Part shown: piece after piece, positions 3,640 to 43,018 of the stretch
Layout: each line of letters opens with the position of its first letter
How positions within the stretch are numbered: position 1 is the first letter of the stretch
Assembly (NCBI GenBank): GCA_014905635.1
Contig: JABVCE010000007.1
Location: 186,001 to 250,000, forward strand
Direction: 5' to 3'
Origin: Scenedesmus sp. PABB004
Lineage: Eukaryota
DNA: 64,000 bases
Program-made: the position numbers and the translations under genes
The notes under the pieces: model-generated
What the model was told of the DNA's origin: nothing
Database searches by the model: none
The model's input: the letters and a program-made list of their open reading frames with translations, nothing else

Positions 3640-3670
<31 letters not shown>

Positions 3671-15176: not shown

Positions 15177-15592
15177 GTGGCCGCGCTGCTGGGCGACGCC
15201 GCCCGCGAGCTGCTGCCGCTGAGCGGGTGGGCAGTGGGAAGCAGCAGGGCAGGGCGGGCGCGGCTGTTGACCGACTGCTGCTGCGGCCGCGCGGGTGTGC
15301 CGGCCGGTCAACGCCCGGGGTGCTGCAGGTTGACCGGCGCCGTTACAGTGCTGGCCAGACCACGGCCGCCCTCTCAAGCCTGACGACGGGCCCCTCTCGC
15401 CCTGCCCGTCACATATACGCAGTGCGGCAGTGTGCGCCAGCAGATCATCGCCCGAGAATGAATGGTCCGCTCCCAACCAAACGACGACAACTGCTTGGCG
15501 CACAGCACAAGGGGCCGCGGCGCGTTGACCAACCCCTCGCCCTCGCATACCTGGCCTGCCCCCTCCCCGTGTTGGCAAGATGCTGCGCCTAA

Positions 15593-22125: not shown

Positions 22126-22720
22126 GCTGCGCAGCGGCGCGCCGCTGCTCGACGTTCGCGTGCTGGGCGAGGGGGGCTCCTGGGCGCCAGGCGTGCGAGA
22201 CAGACAGACGCGCTGATCACTCCGGGCGCGGGCGCAGGGGTGGGGAGGGCGAGCGCGGGCTGCATTCATTCGCGGCGGTTGTCAACCGCAGTTCAATTGC
22301 GGGCGCCCGGCCGGCAGCCGGCGCAGCCTCGGCGCTAAAGATTCCCCACAACGCACGACATACATGCTGATAGGTTAGGTCCACCCCGCAGGCGCGAAGC
22401 CTCCATGGGCCGCCGCCTCACGCGTCGCGCACAGCACGACGCTGTCGCTCCCAACTTTCTCATGCGCGCCACTCGTGCTGTGCCGCGCGCGGCAAACACG
22501 GTGACCGCTCCGCCGTCGGCTGCTGTGCCAGACCGACCCCAAAATCAACGTCACGCTCGTCGCCGTAGCCTCGTCACGCTGGCCGGTGATGTTGGTGATG
22601 TGGTGTGCTGGGAAACATATGTGATGCATGGAGGACACACGGCGCGCGACGTTGCAGGGCACGCGCCGCACGGGCACGCGCCTGGCCGCGCACCTAGCGC
22701 ACGGCGCGCCGGCGCGCAGC

Positions 22721-25700
22721 TCAGTTGTACGACTCCGGCACGCCGCCGGGGACGGGGAAGGTGAAGTTGGGGCAGGGGCCCGCTTGCTTGTCCTCTGCCA
22801 GCGTGGGGCACTTGTACCAGACCACCTTCATGCAGCCGATGTCCTCGTGCTGCGCGGGGCGGCGATCAGACGGGGAGCGCAGGGGTGAGAGCAGAGTGAG
22901 CAACGTTTTGCCCCTGCAGTGGCACCGCGGGAGTCGGCCGGAACGGCCAGCACCCCCGCGGTGTGGCGGCGCGGCGCTCACCTGCAGGAAGTGGCAGTGC
23001 ATGACCGTGTAGCCGCTGTACTGCCCCGGCTGGAAGCGCAACGGGATGGGGGTCTCGGTGTACTCCACCGCGACCATGGGCAGGTTGAGCGTGTCGTGGA
23101 AGTCGCCAACCTCAAACCAATTGGTGAAGCGGCTGCCCGGCATGAGGATGGTGTTGTTGAGTGCCTGGATCTGATAGGGGTTGATGTGCACGTGCATGGG
23201 GTGGAAGCCCATGTCATAAAAGTTCCACTGCACCACCTGTGGCGGGGCAGCAGCGGTGAGCGGCGACGGACAGCGGCAACGGACAACAACCGACGGACAA
23301 CGGCCGACCGACAGCGGCCGGCGGCAACAGCGGCGGGGAGCGGCGCTGGCGGCACGGCGGTCACCTTGCCCAGCGGCAGCGTCAGCGGGTTGCTGTCAGG
23401 CAGGGAGAACGTCTCGACTGCGTCCCTGTCGTCGCCGCTGGTAACGCCGCACGCGATGGCAAACAACTCCTGCGGCTCGGGCGTGTTTGGCAGGAAGATG
23501 GCACCGAAGCCCAGCGTGTAGGCGTAGATGTCGGCGGGGTCGTAGCCTGGCGCGCGCGCGGGCAACACGGGAGGGGACAGCAGGTGGGGGGCAGCGTGGG
23601 GAGGGGCGTGGCGGACCCTGCGGCCGCGCAGGCACGCGCGCTAGCGTGCCGCGCGCGCCCTGCACCCACGCCCCTCCGCGCTGCCGCGCGCGGCGCACGT
23701 GCGGCTTTCAGGGCCTCGTCGCGTAGGTCGGTGGCGTACGCGGGGCGCAGCGGCGTGCAAGCGCGCTCCACGAGCGGCGCCGTCAGCACTTTTGGCACGC
23801 CAGGCGGCCGCGCTGTGAGCTTGATTGTGAAGATCTTGTCCTGCAACCCGGGCAGAGGGCAGGGGTGTTTTTTTGGGGGGGGGCACATGCGGCCCCCTCA
23901 AGGGTAAAGGAGTGCGGCAGGCCCCAACGCTGAGCCCGATTCACACCTGGAACAAGTGGATGTGCTGGAAACGGCCGACAGGAAAGTCGTCGCCCTGCCA
24001 GCCGAAGCAGTTGTCTGAAAAGGGCTGGCATTCGCGCGCCGTGGCGACAAACGTGTCGCCCGGGCGGCCGCGGCAGCGCACGAGCAGCTCGGCGCGGTTG
24101 GCTGAGGCAAAGAACATCGCGTCCACGCGGCGGGGCAGAGACATGAGGTACACGCCGTCCTTGGCGTACAGCTGCAGCTCGCACGCGTTGGTCGTCTTGT
24201 TTGTGGCCGCGTCATAAAAGGAAAACACCATGAAGCCCTGCGCGCGCGTGCGTGGCGGGCGTGCGCGCGGGCGCGTCAACAGGGGCGGCCGCGGGACGAG
24301 CCTGCGCCGTGCGCGCCCAGGCGAGCCCGCCTGTCTGCTGCCGTGCCTTGATCCCGCTGAACAGCATCCGCCAGCGCTGCCACACGCCCTCCGGCATGTT
24401 ATGCACCGGCTGGTAGCCACTGTGTGGCGCGAGGGCGGCAGCGGGCGCACGACGGGGCTCAGCGCGGCCAGTGCAAACAACCAACGCCCTCGGCGCGGAC
24501 GCGCACGTGCGCGTGTCCATGGGCTGGGCGGCGCGCCCGCCGCGGCTGCGCCTCGCCGCCCGCTCTTGGGCGCCGCCGCAGCCCTCCCCGCGCACGCGGT
24601 CAACCCGCGCACCCGTTGACCATCAACACGTCTTGGCCGCGCCCGCGCACCGCGGTGCCGCGCGGGCGGTTGGCGCCGGTCGAGTAGCGGTCCGCAGGGT
24701 CACTGATGTTGCCATAATACTGGAACGGGCCTGAGGGGGCGGGGGCAGGGGCGGGGGCGGGGGCGGGGGCGGGGGCGGGGGCGGGGGCGGGGGCGGGGGC
24801 GGGGCGGGGGCGGGGGCGGGGGGGGCGGGGGCGGGGGGGCGGGGGTGGGGGCGGTGCGACGTCTTGAGACAGTGTCGGGCTCGCAGCAAGCGGCGGCGCG
24901 TGTGCACCCGCAGACGTGCACTGCGCGCCGCCGGCTAGCGCGACGCCACACGCTGTCTGGCGCCCAGGCAGCAGCGCGCCCGAGTGCGCCTCAAGCACAC
25001 ACGCCCACACGCACGCACCGTTGTTGACCTGGTCGGCGTAGCGGCTGAACGTGGTGTACCTCTTGGGTATTTGCGGCGGCAGCGGCGGCGCCGTCGCACG
25101 GGGCGGGTCGGCGTTGCGGAAGTAAAACAGGGTCATGTCAAACAACACCTCCTGGGCGGCCTCGATCACGGTGCGGAAGTTGGCACAGCCGGTGCGGGGC
25201 GGGAGCCAAAAGTCGTTGTCATCCTCAACGATGATCAGGCCGTGGGCGGTGCCGACCTGGCGGCGCGGCAACGGCGGCGGGCGGCGGTGGTTTGGCCACG
25301 GCGCGGCAATGCATGGGCTGGGGCGCGCACGCAGCGCGCCTGCAGCGAGGTCGACCCGTGCTGGTGGGGGTGCATCCAGTGGAGGCCGGGCAGGTGGGTG
25401 GTGGGGATCTGCGGCCGCGGGTGGTGACGCTCGCGGGCGAGCGCGCGCGCCGCGTGCCGTCGCCCCCGCCGCCTCGGCTCGCCCGCCGGCGCTGTCAAGC
25501 CGAGCAGCTGTCGCGCAGCGCACCTTGAGATTGAAAATCCTGGTGTCTCCCTTCTCCCTGGTGCTGTTGCGGGCCTTGATGGTGAAAAATGGGTTGTCGC
25601 CCAGCACGTACGTGCCCGCCGTGTCCTGAGACGGCACGCCCAGCTCGGCGTGGATGCCGTGGGTGTGCACGTTGGTGTTGCCGGGGTTGTGGTAAAAGTC

Positions 25701-26580
25701 CTCCGTGTCCGACTGGGTGTCCTGCACCAGCATGTTGGTGACCTTGATGCTGCGACGCGGCAGTGGGCGTGGGGCGTGGAGCGTGGGGTGCAGGCGCGTG
25801 GGTGCGCAGGCGCGGAGCACACCGGAGCGGGCGCGGTGGCCGAGGGACCCCAAGGGCGAGGCAGGCCCCGGGGCCTCCGCGCGGCGCGGCACAGCGCGGC
25901 GCAGCGCGGCGTCGAGTGACTCACACGTAGGGCGAGCCGCGCTTGACGCGCATCGTCGGCGCAAACATCTGCATGCGTGCACACGGGCGGGGGGATTGAG
26001 CACGTGAGACGGTGGGCCGCGCGCGCGGGTACCGCGGGGCGCAGCCGGCGCGTGCGTGTGCGCCTCACGTGGGCACGGCCCGTGAGGTCGTCCACATAGG
26101 CCGCTGCCGTCATCCTGAACAGCGGCGTGCCCGGCTGGTTGACGGGGCCCTGCGCCCAACGCGCGCGCGTGCGGGGTGGGTGGGGTGGGTGGGGTGGCGG
26201 GGGCGTCGCGGGCGCGCCCCGCGGAGGGGCTGCGACGCGTGCCGCCCGCCCGCGTCCCCTCGCCGATACAAGCACACACAAGCCCACCCTCAGCCACGCG
26301 CCTTGAACGTCACCGGCGCGAGCGTGAGACTGAGAAAGTTGACCGGGGTCTTTGGTGCCAGCGAGTCGGCGCCGGGCAGGCGGTCGAGGTCATACTCGGC
26401 AGGGAACTCATACGTGTGGTACACCTCGGCCGGGGCCCCCAGAGGCTCGCTGCCCGCCTGGGCCAGCTCCCGGAGGAGCGCGCGGTGATGCGCGGCGCCC
26501 GGCGCCGGCGCCGATGCGGCCGCCAGCAGCAGCAGCAGCAGCAGGCGAGCGCGCCCGTGGTGTGTGGCCGCGCAGTCCAT
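22721..26580 (-). CDS. Secreted multicopper oxidase, copy 1, multi-exon
   Basis: Signal peptide LLLLLLLAAA; four Cu motifs NTNVHTHG, WMHPHQHG, HPMHVH, MHCHFLQ|HEDIGCM; also LMVNG, KDG and NRAELLV. Confidence 0.93.
24735..24853. repeat. (GGGGGC)n hexamer tract in an oxidase copy-1 intron
   Basis: Direct reading; copies 2 and 3 have only ~2 units at this site. Confidence 0.9.
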
Positions 26581-27741
26581 GCCGGTCGCCTGCGCGGACT
26601 GGCTAGGCGACCATAGGGACGACGTGTGCTGGCTGGTCATGGAGCGCAGGTGGCCGGGCTGCGCGCGCCAGGCGGCGGCAGCAGCAGCAGCAGCGGCGGC
26701 CTGGCTGGCCCAAAGCAATATGAGCGCTGCAGAGGCGCCGAGATGCGCAAACGGTGAATATCCGCTTTCGCCGCGCGGGGGAGCAGGAAGGTGCGGGAGG
26801 GCAGAGAAAGAGGCTTGTTCTAACATCGTTCCCGCTGGCAGGCCACTGCCGCCCGCAGCTCGCCGTACGGTCGGCCGGTGCGACAGTGAGCTGCACGTCA
26901 CCATGGGCACACTGCGAGGCGCGATCGCCGCCGAGTCACCGCCGCTGTCGGCGCGCGCGGTGCTGATGCGGGGGCAGCCCGCAGCACACGGGCGGCGGCC
27001 GCTCGGCGGTGGCAGCGATGCCGCTGCGCGCGTGTTGCACAGCGCTGTAGCCGTTCGCCGCGCCGCCCACCGAGCCACTCGCTACGCCGCCTGCCGCCCT
27101 CACCGCGGAGAAGCGCGGCATGCCAGCGGGCCCCGCAGCGAACGACCGTTCTGCGCCGCTCCAGCACTGCCCGGCGACCACCAGGCCAGGAGCAGCCCGG
27201 CACCGCGCCGCGCCTCGAACCCAACGCGCCGCTTGGCCGCGGTAGCCCCGGCGCGCCGTTCTCGCGCGCCGGGCCCCGGCGCGCCGTTCTTGCGCGCCGG
27301 GCGTTGTACTCCGCCATGCCCACCCGCGCACCAGCGCCGGCGACAACACAAGCGTCAGCGCCGCACAAGCCTTGCGCGCGCTGAGCCCGAGCCTAAAACG
27401 CGCGAGCCGACCAGCCAACTCACACGTGCCTGGTACGGCATTCAGCGGCGCGGACCCAGCAAATGCATGCAGCCCCTGCCTGGGGTCAGGGATCAGTGCG
27501 CGACTGTTTGACGTGTGTATGCACTAAAAGCGCTGTTCGAGCGCCGTTCGAGCGCTGTTCTAGCGTTGTTCTTGCGCGTAGCGAGCCGGGTGCTCCTGCA
27601 CGCCAGCCCACGATTCTGCCGTCCCATGTTGTGCACAAAAGAACGCAGCAAACAAAGCCTTTGCGGATCTCTCCGTAGCGCCCGCAACACCGAGCAAAAC
27701 CAACGGCCGCCGCCCGCTCCGCCGCGCGGCGCTGCGCGCGC

Positions 27742-28908
27742 TCACGCGCCGCTGAGCACGTAGCCGGACGGCTGGGTGCAGCTGACGCCGTTGGGGAACT
27801 TGGAGCGCGGGTAGCCGAGCGCATACGTGTTGCCCGGCTCGACGTTGAACACCGGGCAGTAGCAAGTGTAGGGCGAGCCGTCAAAGGCCCGGCGCCTGTA
27901 GCACGCCGCGGTCATGCAGTCGGCCAGGATGCTGGAGCCATCCGCCGCGCCCGTGCAGACCGCCGCGCCCTGCGGGCACACGGCGTGGCGCGGCACGCGG
28001 CGCGCGTGGGGCGCGCACGAGCGCGCATGCGGGGCCGGGCGGCCGCTCGCGCGGCAGGCCCTGCCGGGAGGGGCCAGGCCGCGGCGGGCGCACCTGGTCG
28101 GCGTACGCGGTGAACGTGGAGATGAAGGGCCACTTGCCGCCATAGATCGTGCTGCGCGCGGCAGGGCGGCGGGCCGGCACTGGTCAGCGACTGGGCAGCG
28201 GCGTTCGGCGGGGCGGCGCGTGCGCGCGCCGCGCCGTCCGCGGCCGGCGGCGCGCACCCCTCGTTGATGGCCTTGCACACGGGCGCCGAGTTCACGGTGA
28301 CGCAGGTGTTGTTTGCGGTCGTGATCGGGTCCTGGCCACCGAAGCAGGCCGTGACGGTGGCGTTGTACACGCTCGCGCTCTTGATGATGTTGGGCGTCAC
28401 CAGGCTGATGCCGACCGGCGCCGTGACGGTGCGCGTGGGGCTTAGGCACCCGCACGCCGCCTGGAGGGGCACGTTGGCGGTGCCGGTGCCGGGAATAATG
28501 GTGCAGTTGGCCACGCTGCACAGCACGAAGGGGCCTTCGCAGCGTGGCCAGTTGTTGGGGTTGACTGCGGCGCAGGGTGGCGGGCGCTGCGTGAGCAGCG
28601 GCGGCAGGCGAGCGGGGAGCGCGCTGCGCTGTGCACGCACTCGGGGGGTCGAGCACTAGGCGCGTGTAGTCCTGGTAAGTGGGGATGCAGGGCCGCCTCC
28701 AGGGCGCGGAGCCGCACTCGCGGCCCCTGCCGCCCTTGTGGTGGTCCTTGTGGCCGCCATGGCTCCCATGCGCCGGCTGGGCGGCCGCGACGGAGGCCGC
28801 GTCATTATCGGCGGGCGAGGGCTGGGCGTGCGCGGCCAGGAGCGCGCACAGGAGCGCGGCAAGGGCGAGCGCATTGCGCCAGACGGCGGTGCGGCGAGCG
28901 CCCGCCAT
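27742..28908 (-). CDS. Secreted His-rich/Cys-rich protein of unknown function, copy 1 (4 exons)
   Basis: Signal peptide; HGSHGGHKDHHK; CEGPFVLCSVANC, CGC, NSAPVCKAIN, ISTF, ADCMTAAC, CYCP; 16 Cys in the mature chain; three phase-consistent GT-AG introns. Confidence 0.9.
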   Translation of the reverse strand: MAGARRTAVWRNALALAALLCALLAAHAQPSPADNDAASVAAAQPAHGSHGGHKDHHKGGRGRECGSAPWRRPCIPTYQDYTRLVLDPPSACTAQRAPRSPAAAAHAAPATLRRSQPQQLATLRRPLRAVQRGQLHHYSRHRHRQRAPPGGVRVPKPHAHRHGAGRHQPGDAQHHQERERVQRHRHGLLRWPGPDHDRKQHLRHRELGARVQGHQRGVRAAGRGRRGARTRRPAERRCPVADQCRPAALPRAARSMAASGPSSPRSPRTPTRCARRGLAPPGRACRASGRPAPHARSCAPHARRVPRHAVCPQGAAVCTGAADGSSILADCMTAACYRRRAFDGSPYTCYCPVFNVEPGNTYALGYPRSKFPNGVSCTQPSGYVLSGA

Positions 28909-29862
28909 GGTGGAGGCTAGGATGGCACGTTTCTATTTCAGTATAAGGAAGGGAATGGCCTACGAGGCGTGCGCGGCGAAGGCGCGTGGCTGTGCGCCGC
29001 GCCGGCCGGGCGCTCGCTGATGTTCAGCGTTGCGCCCCGCCTTCCACGGGAAGTTCTGCCCGGCCGCCTCGCCAGCTCTGCTGGCTGGCGATCATCTGCC
29101 GGTCGCAATGGGCGCGCTGCGAGGCGCGATTGCCGCGAGTCACCGGCGCGGCGCGGCGCCGCCCGCTACGCTCGAGCTGGCGGCGCGCCCGGAGCTTGCG
29201 CGAGGTTGCAGCGCCGCCGGCGGGGCCTCGGCGGGTGGCAGCGGTGGCGCGCGCGGCAGCAGCCAGCACGCGCCGCGCACCGCGCTGCTAGCTACTGCGG
29301 TCACCGGTGCATGCGCCGCGCACCACCAGCGCGCGCGGCGGCGCTGGAGCACGGCACGCACTGCAGCTGGGCGCTGTCCGCGCACGCAGCGAAACAGCGG
29401 TGCCCGCCACAAGCGCTCATCCGTGACCGCCTGTCCCGCAACAAAGGCAAACCCTATGCTGACAAATGTCGACATTCCCTTACAAATCGCTTAGAAATCA
29501 CGCCACAACGTTCGTGAGGCAACAGGCATCTCTGATTCCTGTTCAAGATCCCCCCTCCCCCCGCGTAGGCGCGAAGCGCACATGAGCCGCCTGCGGCCAA
29601 TGTGCACAGGAAAGCCGACACGCACAGCGCGCGCGTGTCGCGGTCGGGCGGCGCACGCTGTTTGCCGCACGTTCCGTTTAGTGACGTGCGCCTTGCGGCA
29701 ACACTCTGCCCGACCCTGAAGCGTGACAAATACAGATATGTGACGTGCCCGCGCCTGCACCCGAGCCTCAAGAGCGAGTCATGCTATCATTGCGTTTGAG
29801 ACCGCGCGGTCACGCTCACGCGCCTGGCCGCGCACCTGGCGCATGGCGCGCCGGCGCGCAGC

Positions 29863-32800
29863 TCAATTGTACGTCTCCCGCACGCCGCCGGGGATGGGGA
29901 AGGTGAAGTTGGGGCAGGGGCCCGCTTGCTTGTCCTCTGCCAGCGTGGGGCACTTGTACCAGACCACCTTCATGCAGCCGATGTCCTCGTGCTGCGCGGG
30001 GGCGGCGATCAAACGGGGAGCGCAGGGGTGAGAGCAGAGGTGTGAGAGCAGGAGTGAGCAACGTTTTGCCCCTGCAGTGGCGCCGCGGGAGTCGGTCGGA
30101 ACGGCCTGCACCCCCGCGGCGGGGCGGCGCGGCGCTCACCTGCAGGAAGTGGCAGTGCATGACCGTGTAGCCGCTGTACTGCCCCGGCTGAAAGCGCAGC
30201 GGGATGGGGGTCTCGGTGTAATCCACCGAGATCATGGGCAGGTTGAGCGTGTCGTGGTAGTCGCCGACCTCAAACCAGCTGGTGAAGCGGCTGCCCGGCA
30301 TGAGCATGGTGGTGTTGAGCGCCTGGATCTGATAGGGGTTGATGTGCACGTGCATGGGGTGGAAGCCCATGTCATAAAAGTTCCACTGCACCACCTGTGG
30401 CGGGGGTAGCAACGGTCCGACACGGCGTACAGCGGTCAGCGGCGACCGACAACAGCCGACGGACAGCGGCCGGTGGCAACAGCGGCGGCGAGCGGCGGCG
30501 CTGGCGGCGCTCAGTCACCTTGCCCAGCGGCAGCGTCAGCGGGTTGCTGTCGGGCACGGAGAACGTCTCGGCTGTCTCCCTGTCGCTGCCGCTGGCAATG
30601 CCGCACGCGATGGCGAACAACTCCTGTGGCTCGGGCGTGTCCGGCAGGAAGATGGCACCGAAGCCCACCGTGTAGGCATAGATGTCGGCGGGGTCATAGC
30701 CTGGCGCGCGCACGGCAGCACGGGGGGGGGGGGGCGTGGGAAGGGGCGCGGCGACTCGAGTGGCAGCACGGGCGCGCGCTGCCGCCCTGCGCCCTGCGCC
30801 ACGCCCGGCGCACGTGCGGCCTTCAGGGCCTCGTCGCGTAAATCGGTGGCGTAAGCGGGGCGCAACGGCTTGCAAGCGCGCTCCACGAGCGGCGCCGTCA
30901 GCACTTTTGGCACGCCGGGCGGCCGCGCCGTGAGCTTGATCGTGAAGATCTTGTCCTGCAACCCGGGCAGAGGGCAGGTGTGTGTGTGTGGGGGGGGGGG
31001 CAAGGCGGGCTCGAACATGCTGCCCTTGGGGGCTGCATGGGGCGGCGCGCCCACCCCACACTGACATTCACACCTGGAACAAGTGGATGTGCTGGAAACG
31101 GACGACAGGTAAGTCGTCGCCCTGCCAGCCGAAGCAGTCGTCTGAAAAGGGCTGGCATTCGCGCGCCGTCGCGACAAACGTGTCGCCCGGGCGGCCGCGG
31201 CAGCGCACGAGCAGCTCGGCGCGGTTGGCTGAGGCAAAAAACATCGCGTCCACGCGGCGGGGCAGAGACATGAGGTACACGCCGTCCTTGGCGTACAGCT
31301 GCAGCTCGCACGCGTTGGTCGTCTTGTTTGTGGCCGCGTCGTAAAAGGAAAACACCATGAAGCCCTGCGCGCGCGTGCGTGGCGGGCGCGCACGCGGGCG
31401 CGTCAACGGGGGCGGCCGCGGGACGCGCTGGCGCCGTGCGCGCCGCGCGTGAGCCCGCCCGCCCGCCCGCCGTGCCTTGATCCCGCTGAACAACATCCGC
31501 CAGCGCTGCCACACGCCCTCCGGCATGTTATGCACCGGCTGGTAGCCACTGCGCGGCAAGGGGGCGGAGGCACGACGGGGCTCAGCGCCGACCACTGCAG
31601 ACAGCCAGCGCCCTCGGCGCGGACGCGCGCGTGCACGCGTCCAAGGGTTGGGCGGTGCGCCCACCGCGGTTGCGCTTCGCCGCCCGCTCTTGGCTGGGCG
31701 GCGCCGCAGCCCTCCCCGCGCACGTGGTCAACCCGCGCACCCGTTGACCATCAACACGTCCTGGCCGCGCCCGCGCACCGCGGTGCCGCGCGGGCGCTTG
31801 GCGCCGGTCGAGTAGCGGTCCGGGGGGTCACTGATGTTGCCATAGAACTGGAACGGCCCTGAGGGGGCGGGGGCGGCGCGTGTGCAAGCGCAGACGTGCA
31901 CTGTGCGCCGCCGGCTAGCGCGCAGACACACGCTGTCTGGCGCCCAGGCAGCAGCGCGCCCGAGTGCGCCTCAAGCACACACGCCCACACGCACGCACCG
32001 TTGTTGACCTGGTCGGCGTAGCGGCTGAACGTGGTGTACTTTGTGGCATATTCTGGCGGCGGCGGTGCCGTCGCACGGGGTGGGTCGGCATTGCGGAAGT
32101 AAAACAGCGTCATGTCAAACAACACCTCCTGGGCGGCCTCGATCACGGCGCGGAAGTTGGCACAGCCGGTGCGGGGCGGGAGCCAAAAGTCGTTGTCGTC
32201 CTCAACGATGATCAGGCCGTGGGCGGTGCCGACCTGGCGGCGCGGCAATGGCAGCGGGCGGCGGTGGTTTGGCCACGGCGCGGCAATGCGTGGGCTGGGG
32301 CACGCACATGCAGCGCAGCGCGCCTGCAGCGAGGTCGACCCGTGCTGGTGGGGGTGCATCCAGTGGAGGCCGGGCAGGTGGGTGGTGGGGATCTGCGGCC
32401 GCGGGTGGTGACGCGCGTGGGTGAGCGCCCGCCGTCCGCCGTCTGCCGCCGTTCCCGCCCCCGCCGCCTCGGCTCGCCCACCGGCGCTGCCAAGTCGAGC
32501 AGCTGTCGTGCAGCGCACCTTGAGATTGAAGATCTTGGTGTCTCCCTTCTCCCTGGTGTTTTTGCGGGCCTTGATGGTGAAAAACGGGTTGTCGCCCAGC
32601 ACGTACGTGCCTGCCGTGTCCTGAGACGGCACGCCCAGCTCGGCGTGGATGCCGTGCGTGTGCACGTTGGAGGACTTTTACCACAACCCCGGCAACACCA
32701 CGACGGAGGACTTTTACCACAACCCCGGCAACACCGTGTCCGACTGGGTGTCCTGCACCAGCATGTTGGTGACCTTGATGCTGCGCGGCAGTGGACGTGG

Positions 32801-33592
32801 GGCGTGGAGCGTGGGGTACAGGCGCGTGGGTGTGCAAGCGCGGAGCACGCCGGAGCGGGCGCGGTGGCCGAGGACCCCGAGGGCGAGGCAGGCCCCGGGG
32901 CCTCCGCGCGGCGCGGCGTCGAGTGACTCACACATACTTCGAGCCGCGCTTGACGCGCATGGTCGGCGCAAACATCTGCATGCGCGCGCACGGGCGGGGG
33001 GAGTGAGCACGTGGGGCGGTGGGCGGCGTGGCGCGCGCGGGCGCTGCAGCGCGCAGCCAGCGCGTGCGCAGCGCCTCACGTGGGCGCGGCCCGTGAGGTC
33101 GTCCACATAGGCCGCTGCCGTCATCCTGAACAGCGGCGTGCCCGGCTGGTTGACGGGGCCCTGCGCCCGGCGCGCGCGCGTGCGGGGTGGGGTGGGGTGG
33201 CGGGGGTGTCGCGGGCGCGTGCGCCGCGCGGCGAGGGGCTGCGGCGCGCGCCGCCCGCCCGCGTCCCCTCGCCGATACAAGCACACACAAGCCCACCCTC
33301 AGCCACGCGCCTTGAACGTCACCGGCGCGAGCGTGAGCGCAAGCGTATCGACCAGGGTCTTTGGTGCCAGCGAGTCGGCGCCGGGCAGGCGGTCGAGGTC
33401 ATACTCGGCAGGGAACTCATATGTGTGGTACACCTCGGCCGGGCTGGCAGCCTGGGGCTCGCTGCCCGCCTGGGCCAGCTCCCGGAAGAGCGTGCGGCGA
33501 TGCGCGGCGCCCGGCGCCGGCGCCGTCGCGGCCGCCAGCAGCAGCAGCAGCAGCAGGGGCGCGCGCCCGCGGTGCGTGGCCGCGCAGTCCAT
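29863..33592 (-). pseudogene. Multicopper oxidase copy 2, premature stop from a local inversion-duplication
   Basis: Same exon structure as copies 1 and 3, but reads QSDTVLPGLW* (stop 32714-32716) just before the first Cu motif HTHG. Confidence 0.8.
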
Positions 33593-34776
33593 GCCGGCCG
33601 CCGCCGGACTGGCGAGGCGACCGCGGGGACGACGTGGGCCGGCTGGGCGTGGAGCGCAGGCGGCCGGGCTGCGCACGCCAGGCGGCGGCAGCAGCGGCCT
33701 GGCTGGCCCAAAGCAATATGATTGCTGCCGAGTCGCCGGGATGGGGCACGAACGGCGAATATCCGTATCGCAGCGCGGGGCAGCCCAGAGCGCGCGGGAG
33801 GGCAGAGAAAGAGGCTTGTTCTAACATCGTCCCCCCCCCCCCCCACCGTGCACTGCCGCCCGCAGCTCGCCGTACGGTGCCCGGTTACCCAGTGAACTGC
33901 CGGGCGCCACAGGCGCACTGCCAGGCGCGATCGCCGCGAGGCACCGGCGCGGCGCCGCTGTGGCTCGCGGCCTGCGCGCGCGGCCTGCGCGCGCAGGCCG
34001 CAGCGCACGGCGGCGGATCCCCGGCGGGTGGCAGCGGTGCCGCTGCACGTTTCGCAATAGCGCTGTAGGCGCTCGCAGCGCCGCCCACCGAGCCACACGC
34101 CGCCCGCCGCCCTCGCCGCGGAGCGCTCTCCGCGGCGTGCTAGCGGGCCCGCAGCGGACGACCGCTCCAGCGCTGCCCGGTGGCCACCAGGCATGGCACA
34201 CGGGGCGACAAGAGTAGGCCGGCACCGCACCGCGCCCCGGACGCGCCCCGGACGCGTCTCGGACGCGCCTCGGACGCCCCACAACAACGTGCCGCTTGGC
34301 CGCGGTAGCCTCGGCTCGCAGTTCTCGTGCGCCGGGCGTTGTATTCCGCCAGGCCCACCCGCACGCCAGCCCGGCGACAACACAAGAATCAGCGCCGCAC
34401 AAGCCTTGGGCCGGGCTGAACCAAGCCTAACACCGCGCGAGCCGACCAGCCAACTCACGCGTGCCGGGGTGTGGCGTTCAGCGGCGCGGACCAAGCATGC
34501 ATGCAGCCCCTGCCAGGGGTCAGGGATCAGTGCGCGACTGTGTTGACGTGTGTATGCACTAAAAGCGCTGTTCGAGCGCCGTTCGAGCGCTGTTCTGGCG
34601 CTGTTCTTGCGCGCAGCGAGCCGGGTGCTCCCGCACGCCAACCCACGCTTCTGCCGGCCCATGTTGTGCACAAAAGAACGCAGCAAACAAACCTATGCGG
34701 AGCTCTCCGGACAGCCCGCAAAACCGAGCAACAACCTACGGCCGCCGCCCGCGCCGCCGCGCGGCGGTACGCGCGC

Positions 34777-35914
34777 TCACGCGCCGCTGAGCACGTAGCC
34801 GGACGGCTGGGTGCAGCCGACGCCGTTGGGGAACTTGGAGCGCGGGTAGCCGAGCGCATACGTGTTGCCCGGCTCGATGTTGAACACCGGGCAGTAGCAG
34901 GTGTAGGGCGAGCCGTCAAAGGCCCGGCGCCTGTAGCACGCCGCGGTCATGCAGTCGGCCAGGATGCTGGAGCCATCCGCCGCGCCCGTGCAGACCGCCG
35001 CGCCCTGCGGGCACACGGCGTGGCGCGGCACGCGGCGCGCATGGGGCGCGCACGAGCGCGCACGCGGGGCCGGGCGGCTGCCGCGGGCGCGGGGAGGGGC
35101 CAGGCCGGGGCGGGGCGCACCTGGTCGGCGTACGCCGTGAACGTGGAGATGAAGGGCCACTTGCCGCCATAGATCGTGCTGCGCGTGGCAGGGCGGCGGC
35201 GTTCGGCGGGGCGGCGCGTGCCGCGCCGCGCGCCGCGCCGTCTGCAGCCGGCTGCGCGCACCCCTCGTTGATGGCCTTGCACACGGGCGCCGAGTTCACG
35301 GTGACGCAGGTGTTGTTTGCGGTCGTGATCGGGTCCTGGCCACCGAAGCAGGCCGTGACGGTGGCGTTGTACACGCTCGCGCTCTTGATGATGTTGGGCG
35401 TCACGAGGCTGATGCCGATCGGCGCCTCGACGGTGCGCGTGGGGCTGAGGCACCCGCACGCCGCCTGGAGGGGCACGTTGGCGGTGCCGGTGCCGGGAAT
35501 AATGGTGCAGTTGGCCACGCTGCACAGCACGAAGGGGCCCTCGCAGCGCGGCCAGTTGTTGGGGTTGACTGCGGCGCAGCGCGGCGGGCGCGCTGCGTGA
35601 GCAGCAGCGGCAGGCGAGCGGGGAGCGCGCTTGCGCTGCGCCGCACTCGGGGGGTCGAGCACCAGGCGCGTGTAGTCCTGGGACGTGGGGATGCAGGGCC
35701 GCCTCCAGGGCGCGGAGCCGCACTCGCGGCCCCTGCCGCCCTTGTGGTGGTCCTTGTGGCCGCCGTGGCTCCCATGCGCCGGCTGGGCGGCCGCTACGGA
35801 GGCCGCGTCATTATCGGCGGGCGAGGGCTGGGCGTGCGCGGCCAGGAGCGCGCACAGGAGCGCGGCAAGGGCGAGCGCATTGCGCCAGACGGCGGTGCGG
35901 CGAGCGCTCGCCAT
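34777..35914 (-). CDS. Secreted His-rich/Cys-rich protein, copy 2
   Basis: Near-identical to copy 1; start context GCCGCCACCATGG. Confidence 0.9.
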
Positions 35915-36922
35915 GGTGGCGGCTAGGATGGCACGCTTCTATTTCACTATAAAGGAAGGGAATGGTCTAGCAGGCGTGTGCGGCGAAGGCGCGTGGCTGT
36001 GCGCCGCGCCGGCCGGGCGCTCGCTGATGTTCAGCGTTGCGCCCCGCCTTCCACGGGAAGTTCTGCCCGGCCGCCTCGCCAGCTCTGCTGGCCGGCGATG
36101 ATCCGCCGGTCGCAATGGGTGCGCTGCGGGGCGCGATAGCCGCGAGTCACCGGCGCGGCGCGGCGCCGCCCGCTGCTGTCGCGCCGGCCGCGCCGCCCGC
36201 TGCGCTCGAGCCGGCGGCGCCCGGAGCTTGCGCGGGGTTGCGGCACCACCGGCGGGGCCTCGGCGGGTGGCAGCGGTGGCCGGTTGCCGCGCGCGGCAAC
36301 AGCCAGCAGGCACCCGCCGCGCACCGCGCTACTCGCTTCTGCGGGCACCCGAGCGCCCGAAGCATCAGCAGCACCCCGCCGTCCACAACCACACACACGC
36401 GGCTGCATGCGCACACCACCAGTGCGCACGGTGGCGCTAGAGCACGGCACGCTCTGCAGCTGGGCGCTGTCCGCTCATGCATCGACATCAGCTTTGCCCC
36501 GCCAGTGCTGCATCAAAGGCAATCCTAAGATGACATGTCATCCCTCAGAAATCCCTCAGGGATCACGCCGCAACGTTCGCGAGGCAACGGGCCTCTCCGA
36601 TCCCTGTTCAAGATGCCCCACCCCCAAAGCGCTGCCACGCGCACATGAGCCGCATGCAGCCAATGTGCACAAGAATGCCGGCGTGCACAGCGCGCGCGTG
36701 TTGCGGCCGCGGGCGGCGCAACCCCCATGTTTGCCGCATGCTCCGTTGAGTGACGCGCGCCTTGCGCCAACACTCAGCACTGTGCCCGACCCCTGAAGCG
36801 AGACAAATACAGTTATTGACGTGCCGCGCCTGCGCCCGAGCCTCAAGAACGAGTCATGCTGTCACTGCATTTGACACCGCGCGGTCACGCTCTGCCTTGC
36901 GTCTGGCGCGCCGGCACGCAGC

Positions 36923-39900
36923 TCAGTTGTACGTCTCCCGCACGCCGCCGGGGATGGGGAAGGTGAAGTTGGGGCACGGCCCCGCTTGCTTGTCCTCTGC
37001 CAGCGTGGGGCACTTGTACCAGACCACCTTCATGCAGCCGATGTCCTCGTGCTGCGCGGGGCGGCGATCAGACGGGGAGCGCAGGGGTGAGAGCAGAGTG
37101 AGCAACGTTTTGCCCCTGCAGTGGCACCGCGGGAGTCGGCCGGAACGGCCAGCGCCCCCGCGGCGCGGCGGCGCGGCGCTCACCTGCAAGAAGTGGCAGT
37201 GCATGACCGTGTAGCCGCTGTACTGCCCCGGCTGGAAGCGCAGCGGGACGGGGTCCCCGGCGTACTTCGCTAAGATCATGGGCAACTTGAGCGTGTCGTG
37301 GTAGTCGCCGACCTCAAACCAGCTGGTGTAGTTGCCGTCTGGCATGAGCGCGGTGGTGTTGAGCGCCTGGATTTGATAGGGGTTGATGTGCACGTGCATG
37401 GGGTGGAATGCAATTGTGTGAAAGTCCCACTGCACCACCTGTGGCGGGCGGGGGCAGCAGCGGTGAGCGGCGGTGGACAGCAGACAGCGGCGGCGGCGGC
37501 GGCAGCGGCGGCGGCGGGCAGCGCTGGTGGCGCGGGGGTCACCTTGCCCAGCGGCAGCGGCAACGGGTTGCTGTCGGGCACGGAGAACGTCTTGGGCTCC
37601 CCGTCGCTGCCGGAAACAGTGCACGCGATGGTAAACAACTCCTTTGGCTCGGGCGTGTTCGGCAGGTAAAAATTGTCGAAGCCCACCGTGTAGGCGTACA
37701 CGTTGGCGGGGTCGTAGCCTGGCGCGCGCGCGGGCAGCGCGGGAGGGGGCGGCAGGCGGGGGGCGGCGTGGGGAGGGGCGTAGCGGACCCTGCGGCCGCG
37801 CAGGCACGCGCGCTGGCGCGCCGCGCGCGCCCTGCACCCACGCCCCTACGCGCTGCCGCGCGCGGCGCACGTGCGGCTTTCAGGGCCTCGTCGCGTAAAT
37901 CGGTGGCGTAAGCGGGGCGCAGCGGCGTGCAAGCGCGCTCCACGAGCGGCTTCGTCAGCACGGCCGGCACGCCAGGCGGCCGCGCCGTGAGCTTGATCGT
38001 GAAGATCTTGTCCTGCAACCCGGGCAGAGGGCAGGTGTGTGTGTGTGGTGGGGGGGGGGGGCAAGGCGGGCTCGAACATGCGGCCCTTGGGGGCTGCATG
38101 GGGCGGCGCGCCCACCCACACTGACATGCACACCTGGAACAACTGATTGCGCTGAGCCCGATTCACCGGATAGTCATCACCCTTCCAACCGAAGCAGGTG
38201 TCTGAGAAGGGCTGGCATTCGCGCGCCGTGGCGACAAACGTGTCGCCCGGGCGGCCGCGGCAGCGCACGAGCAGCTCGGCGCGGTTGGCGGCGGCAAAAA
38301 ACATCGCGTCCACGCGGCGGGGCAGGGACATGAGGTACACGCCGTCCTTGGCGTACAGCTGCAGCTCGCACGCGTTGGTCGTCTTGTTTGTGGCCGCGTC
38401 GTAAAAGGAAAACACCATGAAGCCCTGCGCGCGCGTGCGTGGCGGGCGCGCACGCGGGCGCGTCAATGGGGGCGGCCGCAGGACGCGCTGGCGCCGTGCG
38501 CGCCGCGCGTGAGCCCGCCCGCCCGCCCGCCGTGCCTTGATCCCGCTGAACAACATCCGCCAGCGCTGCCACACGCCCTCCGGCATGTTATGCACCGGCT
38601 GGTAGCCACTGCGCGGCAAGGGGGCGGAGGCACGACGGGGCTCAGCGCCGACCACTGCAGACAGCCAGCGCCCTCGGCGCGGACGCGCGCGTGCACGCGT
38701 CCAAGGGCTGGGCGGTGCGCCCGCCGCCCGCTCTTGGCTGGGCGGCGCCGCAGCCCTCCCGGCGCACGCGGTCAACCCGCGCACCCGTTGACCATCAACA
38801 CGTCCTGGCCGCGCCCGCGCACCGCGGTGCCGCGCGGGCGCTTGGCGCCGGTCGAGTAGCGGTCCGGGGGGTCACTGATGTTGCCATAGAACTGGAACGG
38901 CCCTGAGGGGGCGGGGGCGGCGCGTGTGCACCCGCAGACGTGCACTGCGCGCCGCCGGCTAGCGCGCAGACACACGCTGTCTGGCGCCCAGGCAGCAGCG
39001 CGCCCGAGTGCACCCCCCAAGCACACAAAAGCACACGCGCCCGCCCACACGCACCGTTGTTGACCTGGTCGGCGTAGCGGCTGAACGTGGTGTACCTCTT
39101 GGGTATTTGCGGCGGCAGCGGTGCCGTCGCACGGGGCGGGTCGGCGTCACGGAAGAAAAACAGCGTCATGTCAAACAACACCTCTTGTGCGGCCTCGATC
39201 ACGGCGCGGAAGTTGGCACAGCCGGTGCGGGGCGGGAGCCAAAAGTCGTTGTCGTCCTCAACGATGATCAGGCCGTGGGCGGTGCCGACCTGGCGGCGCG
39301 GCAATGGCAGCGGGCGGCGGTGGTTTGGCCACGGCGCGGCGATGCGTGGGCTGGGGCACGCACATGCGGCGCAGCGCGCCTGCAGCGAGGTCGACCCGTG
39401 CTGGTGGGGGTGCATCCAGTGGAGGCCGGGCAGGTGGGTGTGGGGGATCTGCGGCCGCGGGTGGTGACGCTCGCGGGTGAGCGCGCGCGCCGCGTGCCGT
39501 CGCCCCCGCCGCCTCGGCACGCCCACCGGCGCTGCCAAGCCGAGCAGCTGTCGCGCAGCGCACCTTGAGATTGAAAATCCTGGTGTCTCCCTTCTCCCTG
39601 GTGCTGTTGCGGGCCTTGATGGTGAAAAATGGGTTGTCGCCCAGCACGTACGTGCCCGCCGTGTCCTGAGACGGCACGCCCAGCTCGGCGTGGATGCCGT
39701 GGGTGTGCACGTTGGTGTTGCCGGGGTTGTGGTAAAAGTCCTCCGTGTCCGACTGGGTGTCCTGCACCAGCATGTTGGTGACCTTGATGCTGCGACGCGG
39801 CAGTGGGCATAGGGTGTGGGTGCGAGCGCGTGGGTGCGCAGGCGCGGAGCACGCCGGAGCGGGCGCGGTGGCCGAGGACCCCGAGGGCGAGGCAGGCCCC

Positions 39901-40593
39901 GGGGCCTCCGCGCGGTGCGGCGTCGAGTGACTCACACATACTTCGAGCCGCGCTTGACGCGCATGGTCGGCGCAAACATCTGCATGCGCGCGCACGGGCG
40001 GGGGGAGTGAGCACGTGGGGCGGTGGGCGGCGTGGCGCGCGCGGGCGCTGCAGCGCGCAGCCAGCGCGTGCGCAACGCCTCACGTGGGCGCGGCCCGTGA
40101 GGTCATCCACATAGGCCGCTGCCGTCATCCTGAACAGCGGCGTGCCCGGCTGGTTGACGGGGCCCTGCGCCCGGCGCGCGCGCGTGCGGGGTGGGGTGGG
40201 GTGGCGGGGGTGTCGCGGGCGCGTGCGCCGCGCGGCGAGGGGCTGCGGCGCGCGCCGCCCGCCCGCGTCCCCTCGCCGATACAAGCACACACAAGCCCAC
40301 CCTCAGCCACGCGCCTTGAACGTCACCGGCGCGAGCGTGAGCGCAAGCGTATCGACCAGGGTCTTTGGTGCCAGCGAGTCGGCGCCGGGCAGGCGGTCGA
40401 GGTCATACTCGGCAGGGAACTCATATGTGTGGTACACCTCGGCCGGGCTGGCAGCCTGGGGCTCGCTGCCCGCCTGGGCCAGCTCCCGGAAGAGCGTGCG
40501 GCGATGCGCGGCGCCCGGCGCCGGCGCCGTCGCGGCCGCCAGCAGCAGCAGCAGCAGGGGCGCGCGCCCGCGGTGCGTGGCCGCGCAGTCCAT
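36923..40593 (-). CDS. Secreted multicopper oxidase, copy 3
   Basis: All four Cu motifs intact; divergent blocks such as WDFHTIAFHPMHVH and WKGDDYPVNRAQRNQLFQ. Confidence 0.93.
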
Positions 40594-41438
40594 GCCGGCC
40601 GCCGCCGGACTGGCGAGGCGACCGCGGGGACGACGTGAGCCGGCTGGGCGTGGAGCGCAGGCGGCCGGGCTGCGCACGCCAGGCGGCGGCAGCAGCGGCC
40701 TGGCTGGCCCAAAGCAATATGATTGCTGCCGAGTCGCCGGGATGGGGCGCGAACGGCGAATATCCGTATCGCAGCGCGGGGCAGCCCAGAGCGCGCGGGA
40801 GGGCAGAGAAAGAGGCTTGTTCTAACATCGTCCCCCCCCCCCCACCGTGCACTGCCGCCCGCAGCTCGCCGTACGGTGCCCGGTTACCCAGTGAACTGCC
40901 GGGCGCCACAGGCGCACTGCCAGGCGCGATCGGCGCGAGGCACCGGCGCGGCGCCGCTGCTCGCGGCGCGAGCGAGCGCGGCACTGCGCGCGCAGGCCGC
41001 AGCGCACGGCGGCGGGGCCTCAGGCGGGGGCAGCGGTTGCTACTGTTGCCCCAACAGCGCTGTAGGCGCTCGCCGCGCCGCGCCGCCCCGAACAGGAGCA
41101 ACCAGAACCAACCACGGCTGACCAGCCGTCTCTATGCAGACGAGTGCGGCGCGCGCGCCAGCGTCGCTTTCGTGAAGGCTCCCCACGCTCCCCATAATCC
41201 ACACACAATGCTGAAGAAAAAGAAAACTAAGCCGGCTCCCGCACGCATGCGCTCCAGCCCACGTTCCGTCAGACCACGTCCCCCCATACCTCGTTCTGCC
41301 AGCCCACATTCTGCCAGCCAGCCCACGTTCTGCCAGCCCCATTCCCGCCAGCCCGTGTGGTGAGTGCATAATTACTCCAGCGAGCAAAGCCCATGCGGAC
41401 GAGGCCGCGCCGCCGCCGCTTTTCTTGTTGTCATTGTT

Positions 41439-42591
41439 TTATCCCCCGCTGAGCACGTAGCCGGACGGCTGGGTGCAGTTGATGCCGTTGGGGAACTTGG
41501 AGCGCGGGTAGCCCAGCGCGTAGGGGGTGTTGGGAGCGAGCTTGAACACCGGGCAGTAGCAGGTGTAGGGCGAGCCGTCAAAGGCCCGGCGCCTGTAGCA
41601 CGCCGCGGTCATGCAGTCGGCCAGGATGCTGGAGCCATCCGCCACGGCGCTGCAAAGCGCCACACCCTGCGGGAACGGTGTGGCGCGGCACGCGGCGCGC
41701 GTGGGGCGCGCACGAGCGCGCACGAGCGCGCACGCGGGGCCGGGCGGCAGCCGCGGGCGCGGGGAGGGGCCAGGCCGGGGCGGGGCGCACCTGGTCGGCG
41801 TACGCCGTGAACGTGGAGATGAAGGGCCACTTGCCGCCATAGATCGTGCTGCGCGTGGCAGGGCGGCGGCGTTCGGCGGGGCGGCGCGTGCCGCGCCGCG
41901 CGCCGCGCCGTCTGCAGCCGGCTGCGCGCACCCCTCGTTGATGGCCTTGCACACGGGCGCCGAGTTCACGGTGACGCAGGTGTTGTTTGCGGTCGTGATC
42001 GGGTCCTGGCCGCCGAAGCAGGCCGTGACGGTGGCGTTGTACACGCTCGCGCTCTTGATGACGTTGGGCGTAATTAGGCTGACGCCGAGCGGCACAGCGT
42101 CGCGCGTGGGGCTGAGGCACCCGCACGCCGCCTGGAGCGGCACGTTGGCGGTGCCGGTGCCGGGAATAATGGTGCAGTTGGCCACGCTGCACAGCACGAA
42201 GGGGCCCTCGCAGCGCGGCCAGTTTCTGACGTCGACTGCGGCGCAGCGCGGCGCGGCGCGCGCGGGTGTGAAGGAACGGCGGCAGTTTCGGTTCCAGCTG
42301 GGCACGCAGCGCTGCGCACGCACTCGGGGCTGTGAGCACTAGGCGCGTGTAGTCCTGGGACGTGGGGATGCAGGGCCGCCTCCAGGGCGCGGAGCCGCAC
42401 TCGCGGCCCCTGCCACCCTTGTGGTGGTCCTTGTGGCCGCCGTGGCTCCCATGCGCCGGCTGGGCGGCCGCTACGGAGGCCGCGTCATTATCGGCGGGCG
42501 AGGGCTGGGCGTGCGCGGCCAGGAGCGCGCACAGGAGCGCGGCAAGGGCGAGCGCATTGCGCCAGACGGCGGTGCGGCGAGCGCTCGCCAT
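41439..42591 (-). CDS. Secreted His-rich/Cys-rich protein, copy 3 (most divergent)
   Basis: Same Cys scaffold; variant segments DVRNWPR, RDAVPLGVSLIT, FKLAPNTPY; ends VLSGG* (TAA). Confidence 0.9.
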
Positions 42592-43018
42592 GGTGGCGGC
42601 TAGGATGGCACGCTTCTATTTCACTATTAAGGGGAGGAGTGGTCTAGCAGGCGTGCGCGGCGCGCGGAGGCGCGGCTGGATGGGAGGGTGAGGATTTGTT
42701 TGTGAGCGTTCGCCTGTGCGGCGCACAAAGTGCACCCGCACCTCGCCACCGTACGATTGGTACGACAGTAAGCTGCCGGCCGCCATGCGCGCTGCGGGGC
42801 GCGATAGCCCCGAGTCACCGGCGCGGCGCGGCGGCGCCCGCTGCTGTCGCGCGCCTGCGGCGCCCGCGGCTTGCGCAAGGTCGCAGCGACGGCGGGGGGC
42901 CTCGGCGGGTGGCAGCGGTGGTACCGCTGCGCGTGTTGCACACACAACGCTGCAGCCGCGGCCCGCACACGCACACGCGCGATCGCTGCGCACGCTTGGT
43001 GGCGCGGGGCGCACAGGC

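Follow-up and report, generated by a model that had tools for sequence, protein, structure and literature searches.

A triplicated pair of a multicopper oxidase gene and a small cysteine-rich protein gene, each behind a common upstream element, in Scenedesmus sp. PABB004

In multicopper oxidases (MCOs), electrons pass from the type-1 (T1) copper through a His-Cys-His motif to the trinuclear centre, and the axial residue of the T1 site is usually Met, Leu or Phe. Some of these enzymes have small or membrane partners: plant laccase is a secreted oxidase found with dirigent protein, a small secreted protein of non-enzymatic appearance, and in Fet3/Ftr1 and algal FOX1 an extracellular multicopper oxidase goes with a partner gene. 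In algae, GTAC is the core of the copper-response element. In Bacillus, the oxidase gene of MnxG is accompanied by MnxE and MnxF, small genes of no characterised family, according to the excerpted text of PMC5622069. The fifth copper site of E. coli CueO consists of M355, D360, D439 and M441, plus a Met-rich helix (PMC7186830). As far as the excerpts of PMC7036934 and PMC6890756 go, laccase and Mn-oxidising activities are known in green algae and the genes largely are not; the extracellular laccase of Tetracystis aeria shows true laccase activity to be secreted in green algae (cited in PMC7036934), and algal Mn oxidation needs unidentified extracellular proteins, for which multicopper oxidases are named as candidates (PMC6890756). 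Sphaeropleales carry a fungal-derived FETC, according to part of PMC11811186.

Here we analysed a window of 64,000 nucleotides from Scenedesmus sp. PABB004, whose own positions are used throughout. An earlier note had described a ~7 kb unit with a co-oriented gene pair amplified three times, and three head-to-tail units of ~7.0 kb were indeed found between ~22,660 and ~42,960, with DNA identity of 84-88%. In each unit a small Cys-rich gene lies upstream of a multicopper oxidase gene, and all six genes are on the minus strand. The features are as follows:

22721..26580, minus strand: MCO1, intact three-domain multicopper oxidase, 13 exons, 708 aa (gene model, motifs, Pfam Cu-oxidase_2)
26850..27055, minus strand: element before MCO1, about -271 to -473 from the ATG
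27742..28908, minus strand: small gene 1, 286 aa in 4 exons, with a hydrophobic leader, a short patch of His and a Cys-rich domain whose family has no name
29090..29250, minus strand: element before small gene 1, about -183 to -342
29863..33592, minus strand: MCO2, probably a pseudogene, with 92% identity to MCO1 apart from its lesion (gene model, copy comparison)
32670..32735, minus strand: lesion in exon 4 of MCO2, where a 30-nt piece has been inverted and doubled, bringing two TAA into frame
33857..34075, minus strand: element before MCO2, about -266 to -480
34777..35914, minus strand: small gene 2, 286 aa, 98% identical to small 1
36095..36290, minus strand: element before small gene 2
36923..40593, minus strand: MCO3, intact with 705 aa; its loops in domains 2-3 have diverged, among them the one that precedes the T1 His (gene model, copy comparison)
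40858..41045, minus strand: element before MCO3
41439..42591, minus strand: small gene 3, 285 aa, 90% identical to small 1
42733..42960, minus strand: element before small gene 3, about -143 to -368, outer edge of the array

The tandem amplification itself is ordinary. The three copies are not an assembly artefact, since the oxidases differ from one another by 8-10% at the protein level, pairwise comparison of the units shows mosaic divergence, and unit-specific pieces are present in contigs of three freshwater metagenome runs from two studies (none of these pieces spans the whole array, and the MCO2 lesion has no visible coverage in them). Each of the 45 modelled introns has AG at its 3' end (36 GT-AG and 9 GC-AG; the shortest is 76 nt). 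Values of dN/dS were below 1 in all six pairs for both genes (range 0.23-0.70), and both genes are most diverged in unit 3. Homology between units stops 20-60 bp beyond the MCO1 stop. Kyte-Doolittle hydropathy agrees with the signal peptides previously claimed for both proteins: all six proteins have an N-terminal hydrophobic stretch (9-mer score 3.0-3.4) starting at residue 13-16, and no membrane-length stretch could be observed after this leader in any of them (19-mer maximum 1.28). We infer that all six are of secreted type and share a compartment.

The oxidase gene models comprise 13 exons and encode 705-708 aa. The copper ligands are complete in MCO1 and MCO3, with 10 His and one Cys in four copper-binding motifs (in MCO1 numbering, His 163/165, 223/225, 593/596/598 and 661/663/667, and Cys662). 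MCO2 is probably a pseudogene; its rescue by splicing is unlikely, as the insert would have to act as a ~60-nt intron, below the minimum of the modelled introns. The three-copy cassette therefore stands for the number of units and not for their integrity, only two being intact owing to the in-frame TAA codons of MCO2. Changes in MCO3 are concentrated in codons 451-670; positive selection was considered and rejected, since pN (0.13) is below pS (0.24) despite this cluster. Family-wide, the loop before the T1 His is highly variable and has no constant acidic residue. Profile searches of the PDB gave bacterial-type, laccase-like enzymes with three domains as the best matches (E 1.8e-39). Three cupredoxin domains in the laccase arrangement could be recognised in the predicted model of P0014, a homologue with 36% identity (pLDDT 78), which aligned with the Thermus laccase 2xu9 at a Foldseek E of 1e-28 and a VIA Z of 29.2 (rmsd 2.8 Å, 403 residues aligned).

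The T1 axial position is occupied by Cys in all three window oxidases and in 30 of 33 hits, axial Met being present only in the three most distant ones. The window oxidases thus depart from the usual Met, Leu or Phe, which marks a variant and not exclusion from the multicopper oxidase superfamily, and they can be assigned by sequence to an algal subfamily with Cys at this position. In 14 of 17 near-full-length members, as well as in both intact window proteins, the count of non-T1 Cys is even only if the axial Cys is included; this Cys is probably tied up in a disulfide, which would leave a three-coordinate T1 site. No description of a naturally occurring axial Cys at T1 copper could be found in open-licence papers. 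Such a site poses a directly testable question of copper chemistry, concerning both its redox potential and whether the Cys is a ligand or part of a disulfide.

The partner had been called His/Cys-rich, of which the second half is justified: the small protein (286 aa) has 17 Cys, 6 His (five of them in residues 47-57) and only 2 Met. Its gene has 4 exons in each unit, for a product of 285-286 aa. The His patch occurs in three of 63 family proteins with 180 aa or more, whose median is 2 His, and the residues conserved across the family are Cys. The family extends over green algae, a fungus and 161 bacterial loci, and the metagenome scan gave two loci only; a metagenome locus considered as a member (L014) was rejected as a chance match opposite an acetyl-CoA-synthetase-like frame. 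No match was found to a Pfam, NCBIfam or PHROGs family, to a PDB sequence or to a usable named Atlas cluster, and no relative in the viral collection. Two proteins named pherophorin in UniRef (P0124 and P0130, both in alignment A8) gave no pherophorin match in Pfam at E up to 1. The small-protein model P0007 was of too poor a quality (pLDDT 49) for a comparison with the dirigent beta-barrel; with such a low-confidence model there was no Foldseek match at E ≤0.001 and no VIA match of Z at least 2 among 48,161 chains, blanks which are no demonstration of a new fold.

A non-coding element of 150-230 bp lies upstream of all six array genes, at promoter distance from their start codons. Upstream regions of small genes and oxidases matched each other at 39-86 bits (composition-adjusted), whereas 686 background windows averaged ~18 bits and reached 28-36 bits at most. 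Element identity is 80-88% between the two gene classes and 80-94% within them; homology ends at both borders, and none was found in the 3' flanks. When the small-1 copy was searched against the DNA of the whole genome, these six places and no others came up, a result that does not prove rarity because the search passes over very common words. A 22-nt pattern is exact in five copies and has one mismatch in the sixth; it has eight one-mismatch matches elsewhere in the genome, six of which were checked and scored 16-25 bits. A dispersed repeat was rejected, as the 13 outside matches that were retrieved score 16-37 bits; it should be noted that the weakest cross-class pairs (39-45 bits) are little higher than the best of these 13 (37 bits, on C39). 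As far as searched, the element is unique in the genome at comparable similarity.

The element precedes the first gene of the array and none follows the last, a polarity softened by the end of unit homology so soon after the MCO1 stop. No copy was found before two oxidase-free small-gene paralogues on contig C4, before the CTR importer gene discussed below, or in eight 10-kb stretches around other MCO hits. A structured RNA was rejected, given the absence of an Rfam match and the differences between predicted folds of the copies (folds without a shuffle control), and so was an oxidase 5' UTR derived from a small-gene start, which scored at background. The copy before small gene 3 begins ~60 bp past the stop of the upstream gene and overlaps DNA that must also serve as the 3' region of that gene. 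This distribution points to a lineage-specific co-regulated pair, whose genes would probably be switched on together. As the element is common to six genes and missing from the oxidase-free paralogues and from CTR, the pairing in this lineage probably goes beyond passenger duplication.

The statement that the pair is never split is true within the window and fails elsewhere in the genome, the two paralogues on contig C4 having no oxidase alongside; there the small gene was duplicated alone. The idea of a conserved oxidase-accessory module was not sustained by the refutation test named beforehand: homologues were unlinked in every testable case. An adjacent oxidase was absent from the two same-genome paralogues, two named algae, one metagenome alga and all 80 bacterial loci, and the closest small-protein homologues (60-65% identical) had no oxidase beside them where testable. 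One contig of Monoraphidium minutum carries two same-clade oxidases under consecutive accessions, which means that the oxidase was duplicated there without an annotated small gene. In eight of the 80 bacterial loci an MCO gene lies 3.6-5.5 kb downstream of the small-family gene; an association was rejected, since these loci form one syntenic block in which the MCO is paired with SCO1 and stands behind genes of the opposite strand, and the MCO is missing from three loci of this block. A small cupredoxin protein is encoded 2.2 kb off, on the other strand, in two Nitrospira loci. Prediction of a complex of MCO3 with small protein 3 scored 0.01 against a mark of 0.34 (P0004 parts, with oxidase exon 5 missing and custom alignments unused), a score that speaks neither for nor against contact.

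The CTR importer reported ~18 kb from the array was identified by Pfam (Ctr, window 3,347-4,057) and is one of two CTR loci found in the genome. The copper-homeostasis slant given to the locus is nevertheless weak: the His patch is not conserved, and CTR is parted from the array by unrelated genes (FZL-like, poly(A)-polymerase-like, repeat-protein and Yip1). In MCO1/2 and three close relatives, the residue at -4 relative to the T1 His is Asp, as at D439 of CueO, so metal oxidation may be possible; MCO3 has Thr and the residue is not family-conserved. Met at -2 is absent, and the window oxidases have 18-20 Met overall. With the NCBIfam CueO model, P0014 scored 37 bits against a cut-off of 525 and P0004 had no match. 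GTAC cores numbered 0-3 per 600 bp, about the background of 1.6 per kb.

The explanation that we put first, tentatively and with a little less than even confidence, is a young, lineage-specific pair, co-regulated and co-secreted, with laccase-like chemistry and a small protein that is not a bound subunit. Two unrelated genes in tandem each stand behind a copy of one upstream sequence, and amplification of the pair has given three units, between which sequence was later exchanged. A local duplication might have set the upstream region of the small gene before the oxidase, or the reverse, so that both genes would answer to the same signal; unequal crossing-over would then have multiplied the unit, after which one oxidase copy died and another presumably acquired different loops where its substrate enters. 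The oxidase would most likely be an extracellular laccase-like enzyme for phenolic or other small organic donors, passing single electrons from the donor by the established route to the trinuclear centre, where O2 would be reduced to water. The small protein would most likely be a disulfide-stabilised wall or matrix protein of the same response, neither a bound subunit nor a copper carrier; substrate, disulfides and matrix role are what we infer. A common sequence is not proof of common regulation, as it is GC-rich and may be a rearrangement scar. Indeed, two chance neighbours might have been co-duplicated with only one gene under selection, the scar perhaps seeding amplification as a direct repeat. 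The missing linkage in any other tested case, the separate duplications in M. minutum and on C4, the position of the element on the outer border of the repeat and the dead oxidase copy all agree with this. However, the element is 80-88% identical between classes while the flanking DNA is unrelated, it stands at promoter distance from six start codons and from neither oxidase-free paralogue, and dN/dS is below 1 for both genes, so we regard such passenger duplication as rather unlikely.

A direct partnership, with the small protein as accessory, guide, copper donor or wall cross-linking substrate of the oxidase, seems still less likely. The inferred common compartment, the 1:1 gene dosage, the common element and the precedent of MnxE/MnxF as accessory subunits of unknown family (in the part of PMC5622069 concerned) would fit it, as would the divergence of both genes in unit 3, which duplication order alone could account for; against it stand the oxidase-free loci of the closest homologues and of most of the family, including the 80 bacterial ones, together with the rarity of the His patch, the 2 Met and the conservation of Cys. 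We consider it similarly improbable that the recent wiring by element copying arose because an as yet undescribed algal oxidase subfamily, with axial Cys (ligand or disulfide), has in the small protein a partner or substrate, which would be the first to be described for it. An extracellular module in which Cu(I), Fe(II) or Mn(II) is oxidised, the His patch catches metal and CTR imports it appears the least probable. It agrees with a fold nearest CueO-type and Thermus enzymes, with the Asp of MCO1/2 and relatives, with the nearby CTR and with the candidacy of multicopper oxidases in algal Mn oxidation (excerpt of PMC6890756), but not with the missing Met at -2 and CueO-level match, the Thr of MCO3, an oxidase without membrane anchor, near-background GTAC cores, or a CTR gene that lacks the element and is separated by unrelated genes.

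If the partner or substrate reading were true, a cross-kingdom secreted Cys-rich family that matches neither Pfam nor PDB entries would gain its first function, and the birth of a eukaryotic two-gene module would have a dated example. Even if the two proteins never touch, the oxidase subfamily would be a concrete candidate for the green-algal laccase and Mn-oxidising activities, its axial Cys would keep its interest, and one element before two unrelated neighbours would offer a clean small case for the origin of eukaryotic co-regulated pairs.

Among described systems, the oxidases resemble Thermus thermophilus laccase 2xu9, E. coli CueO and Bacillus CotA in their four copper motifs and three cupredoxin domains. 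They differ in having axial Cys instead of Met, about ten extra conserved Cys, a Cys-containing C-terminal tail, a spliced eukaryotic gene and a secretory-type leader, with identity of ~20-25%. The fifth copper site of CueO is not reproduced, the D439 place holding Asp in MCO1/2 only and the M441 place having no Met. None of the partner types named earlier (laccase/dirigent, MnxG/MnxEF, Fet3/Ftr1) could be recognised, there being no dirigent domain, no permease and no oxidase of MnxG size. The likeness to MnxG/MnxE/MnxF, as the excerpt of PMC5622069 presents it, is an oxidase gene adjoining a small gene of an uncharacterised family; however, P0004 and P0014 do not match NF041487 (~700 aa against a model of 1,894 positions), adjacency is not kept across species, and the pair is known here from its genes. 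Unlike Fet3/Ftr1 and FOX1, the oxidase has no C-terminal membrane anchor and its partner is soluble, not a permease. As with plant laccase and dirigent protein, an oxidase and a small protein are both of secreted type, but 38 family members gave no dirigent match in Pfam at E up to 1, and the oxidase is of bacterial type, with no match to the plant laccase model. To the laccase of Tetracystis aeria the likeness is that of a secreted green-algal oxidase, by described activity rather than by sequence.

The window covers positions 186,001-250,000 of host contig C67. The host genome (40 Mb, 80 contigs, 70-83% GC) has short spliceosomal introns, and the closest named relatives of both array proteins were found in green algae: Monoraphidium, Micractinium, Chlorella and Parachlorella. 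Self-comparison of the window revealed the three units of ~7 kb that the earlier note had claimed. They lie head to tail and share 84-88% identity, and each has a small gene and then an oxidase gene on the minus strand. Gene models were built by hand and then transferred between units by mapping. All small genes have 4 exons and encode 285-286 aa; the oxidase genes have 13 exons, encoding 708 aa in unit 1 and 705 aa in unit 3. In exon 4 of MCO2 (unit 2), a 30-nt piece is inverted and doubled, giving two in-frame TAA codons; thus the triplication held for the array structure but not for an intact oxidase in each unit. Splicing-out of this lesion is unlikely, since the intron needed (~60 nt) is below the shortest of 45 modelled introns. 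Values of dN/dS were 0.23-0.70 across all six pairs of array gene copies, and the degree of similarity between copies changed from one part of a gene to another, a pattern that gene conversion or unequal crossing-over would produce. Near-identical pieces of every unit were present in contigs of three metagenome runs (two studies), the longest (1,049 bp) covering the end of MCO2 together with the linker between units; no matching contig spanned the array. Other features are as follows.

Features within and around the array (window positions)
~2,190-4,081, plus strand: copper transporter (CTR) gene, one of two CTR loci found in the host genome
~15,400-19,140, minus strand: gene whose product starts with a hydrophobic leader; it contains long tandem repeats of coding type (84 bp x 11, 36 bp x 8, 63 bp x 4)
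22,721-42,591: the modelled introns; 9 of 45 are of the GC-AG type, and the three oxidase copies have them at the same three sites
24,735-24,854: MCO1 intron 6, with a run of ~20 GGGGGC units that the other two copies lack
36,923-45,180: public gene model P0004 (1,476 aa), a fusion of small gene 3 and MCO3 with the gene upstream
~43,019-45,180, minus strand: upstream neighbour of the array, with an N-terminal coiled-coil, bZIP-like by eye

P0004 lacks oxidase exon 5, which carries a copper motif. Small gene 3 ends in a stop of its own and MCO3 begins with a separate leader, so the fusion is apparently an error of annotation. The upstream neighbour had only a weak ZapB match in Pfam. The repeat gene, one exon of which had no Pfam match, is possibly a wall protein. 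Two sites with GTAC, the core of the algal copper-response element, lie ~195 bp ahead of the presumed CTR start. The distance of 18 kb between CTR and the array was correctly noted before, but at least four unrelated genes lie between.

The small protein, described earlier as His/Cys-rich, contains 17 Cys, 6 His and 2 Met. A profile search gave 89 representatives (E <= 0.001) from several green algal classes, from bacteria and from the fungus Hyaloraphidium, and no family in Pfam, NCBIfam or PHROGs fitted it. The cysteine frame is the conserved part; the histidines are not conserved, and the His patch occurred in only 3 of 63 members, so the first half of that description did not hold. Two tandem paralogues on host contig C4 (~839.5-843.0 kb; locus L010:4,545-8,035) have short His/Gly/Lys leaders and extra introns, and the next gene also has a secretory-type leader.

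Every linkage test went against a conserved two-gene module; the proposal of an oxidase-accessory module was supported in part, the evidence in its favour being the upstream element described below. No oxidase was found near the C4 paralogues in the 40 kb examined, and eight 10-kb stretches around other host oxidase matches contained no small-family gene except one marginal match (E 0.034). In Monoraphidium minutum, judged from annotated records that may miss a neighbour, the closest small homolog was on a 74,273-bp contig, and two oxidases with consecutive accessions were on another of 698,557 bp. The two genes were also on separate contigs in Chlorella ohadii, whose small protein belongs to another subclade. 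A metagenome alga (64% identical) had no oxidase in 10 kb downstream, with 0.8 kb covered upstream. Among prokaryotes, 161 stretches with the small family were confirmed and 80 fetched (60 of them with 6 kb or more covered downstream, 55 with 3 kb or more to each side); an oxidase adjoined the small-family gene in none of the 80, and in 8 it lay 3.6-5.5 kb away, all in one syntenic block. These Dadabacteria-like loci (L045, L048, L049, L051, L059, L067, L069 and L080) have a SCO1-MCO pair 3-5 kb downstream, which was absent from three loci of the same block.

Self-comparison also revealed that the upstream regions of small genes and oxidases match each other. The shared element is 150-230 bp long and on the same strand; it lies roughly between -143 and -368 in the small genes and between -266 and -480 in the oxidases. 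Composition-adjusted scoring gave 39-86 bits for pairs between the two gene classes, the weakest being close to the best outside match; among 686 background windows the maxima were 28-36 bits. With the small-1 copy as query, a genome-wide search, which passes over common words, found only the six array places; two other copies gave extra short GC-rich matches (24-37 bits once fetched). Outside the array, the small-gene form is matched best on contig C39 at ~91.3 kb (30-37 bits), by what may be a partial relative or a chance similarity. No element was found upstream of the C4 paralogues or CTR. TGACTC occurs in four of the six copies, and any tie to the bZIP-like neighbour is speculative. Flanking DNA is unrelated between classes. 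Element identity between classes is similar to that within class, which dates the copying of the element to roughly the origin of the array, unless the element is constrained. A copy precedes the first array gene and none follows the last; that before small gene 3 starts ~60 bp past the stop of the upstream gene. As the element marks the edge of the repeat unit, it may have acted in recombination instead of, or in addition to, controlling expression.

The oxidase subfamily is represented in the host by these three copies, plus a weak match to two C27 genes. Scoring of 8,000 database candidates gave 33 matches, mostly 30-38% identical, and 16 sequences including the window oxidases formed a supported clade in FastTree, separate from bacterial outgroups and with Monoraphidium beside the window copies. 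All eleven canonical copper ligands are present in MCO1 and MCO3. The best solved relatives, by comparison with a model of homolog P0014, were Thermus laccase and CueO. Five residues past the last type-1 (T1) His, 30 of 33 matches have Cys and the three most distant Met; at this column Thermus laccase has Met, its axial ligand, and T1 axial residues are usually Met, Leu or Phe. Axial residues in other host oxidases (including C18 and C67 ~857 kb) were Leu in the duplicated C27 pair, Gln at two loci and Met at two more. Further Cys columns showed no variation among the 24 aligned subfamily rows. Including the axial Cys, both intact window oxidases and 14 of 17 near-full-length members had an even count of non-T1 Cys; from this parity, the axial Cys is probably tied in a disulfide, leaving T1 three-coordinate.

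In sum, the locus couples an unusual algal multicopper oxidase to a protein from an unnamed family, a local pairing made through an upstream element that was copied. Our leading reading, held somewhat short of even chances, is a young co-regulated pair in which the small protein is not a bound subunit: both proteins would be secreted under common regulation, the small one probably with a matrix role. Passenger co-duplication agrees with the unlinked homologs and is a weaker though serious contender, with the element shared by both gene classes on the other side. That the small protein is a direct partner or substrate of the oxidase would suit their pairing in every unit, but is rather unlikely given the same lack of linkage. 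A metal-handling role, which overlaps the other readings, appears the least probable; the small-protein histidines vary.

In literature searches, which covered open-licence papers, no title or abstract dealt with the pair, the subfamily of its oxidase or Cys as a natural axial residue. Features of dirigent proteins, Fet3/Ftr1 and FOX1 were used for comparison. The loop preceding the T1 His is highly variable across the family, and MCO1 and MCO2 differ from MCO3. In CueO, a fifth copper is bound via D439 and M441 in this loop (PMC7186830); MCO1 and MCO2 have the Asp without the Met, and MCO3 has neither. Based on these differences, a laccase-like activity on organic substrates would be the first choice for the oxidase and metal oxidation the second.
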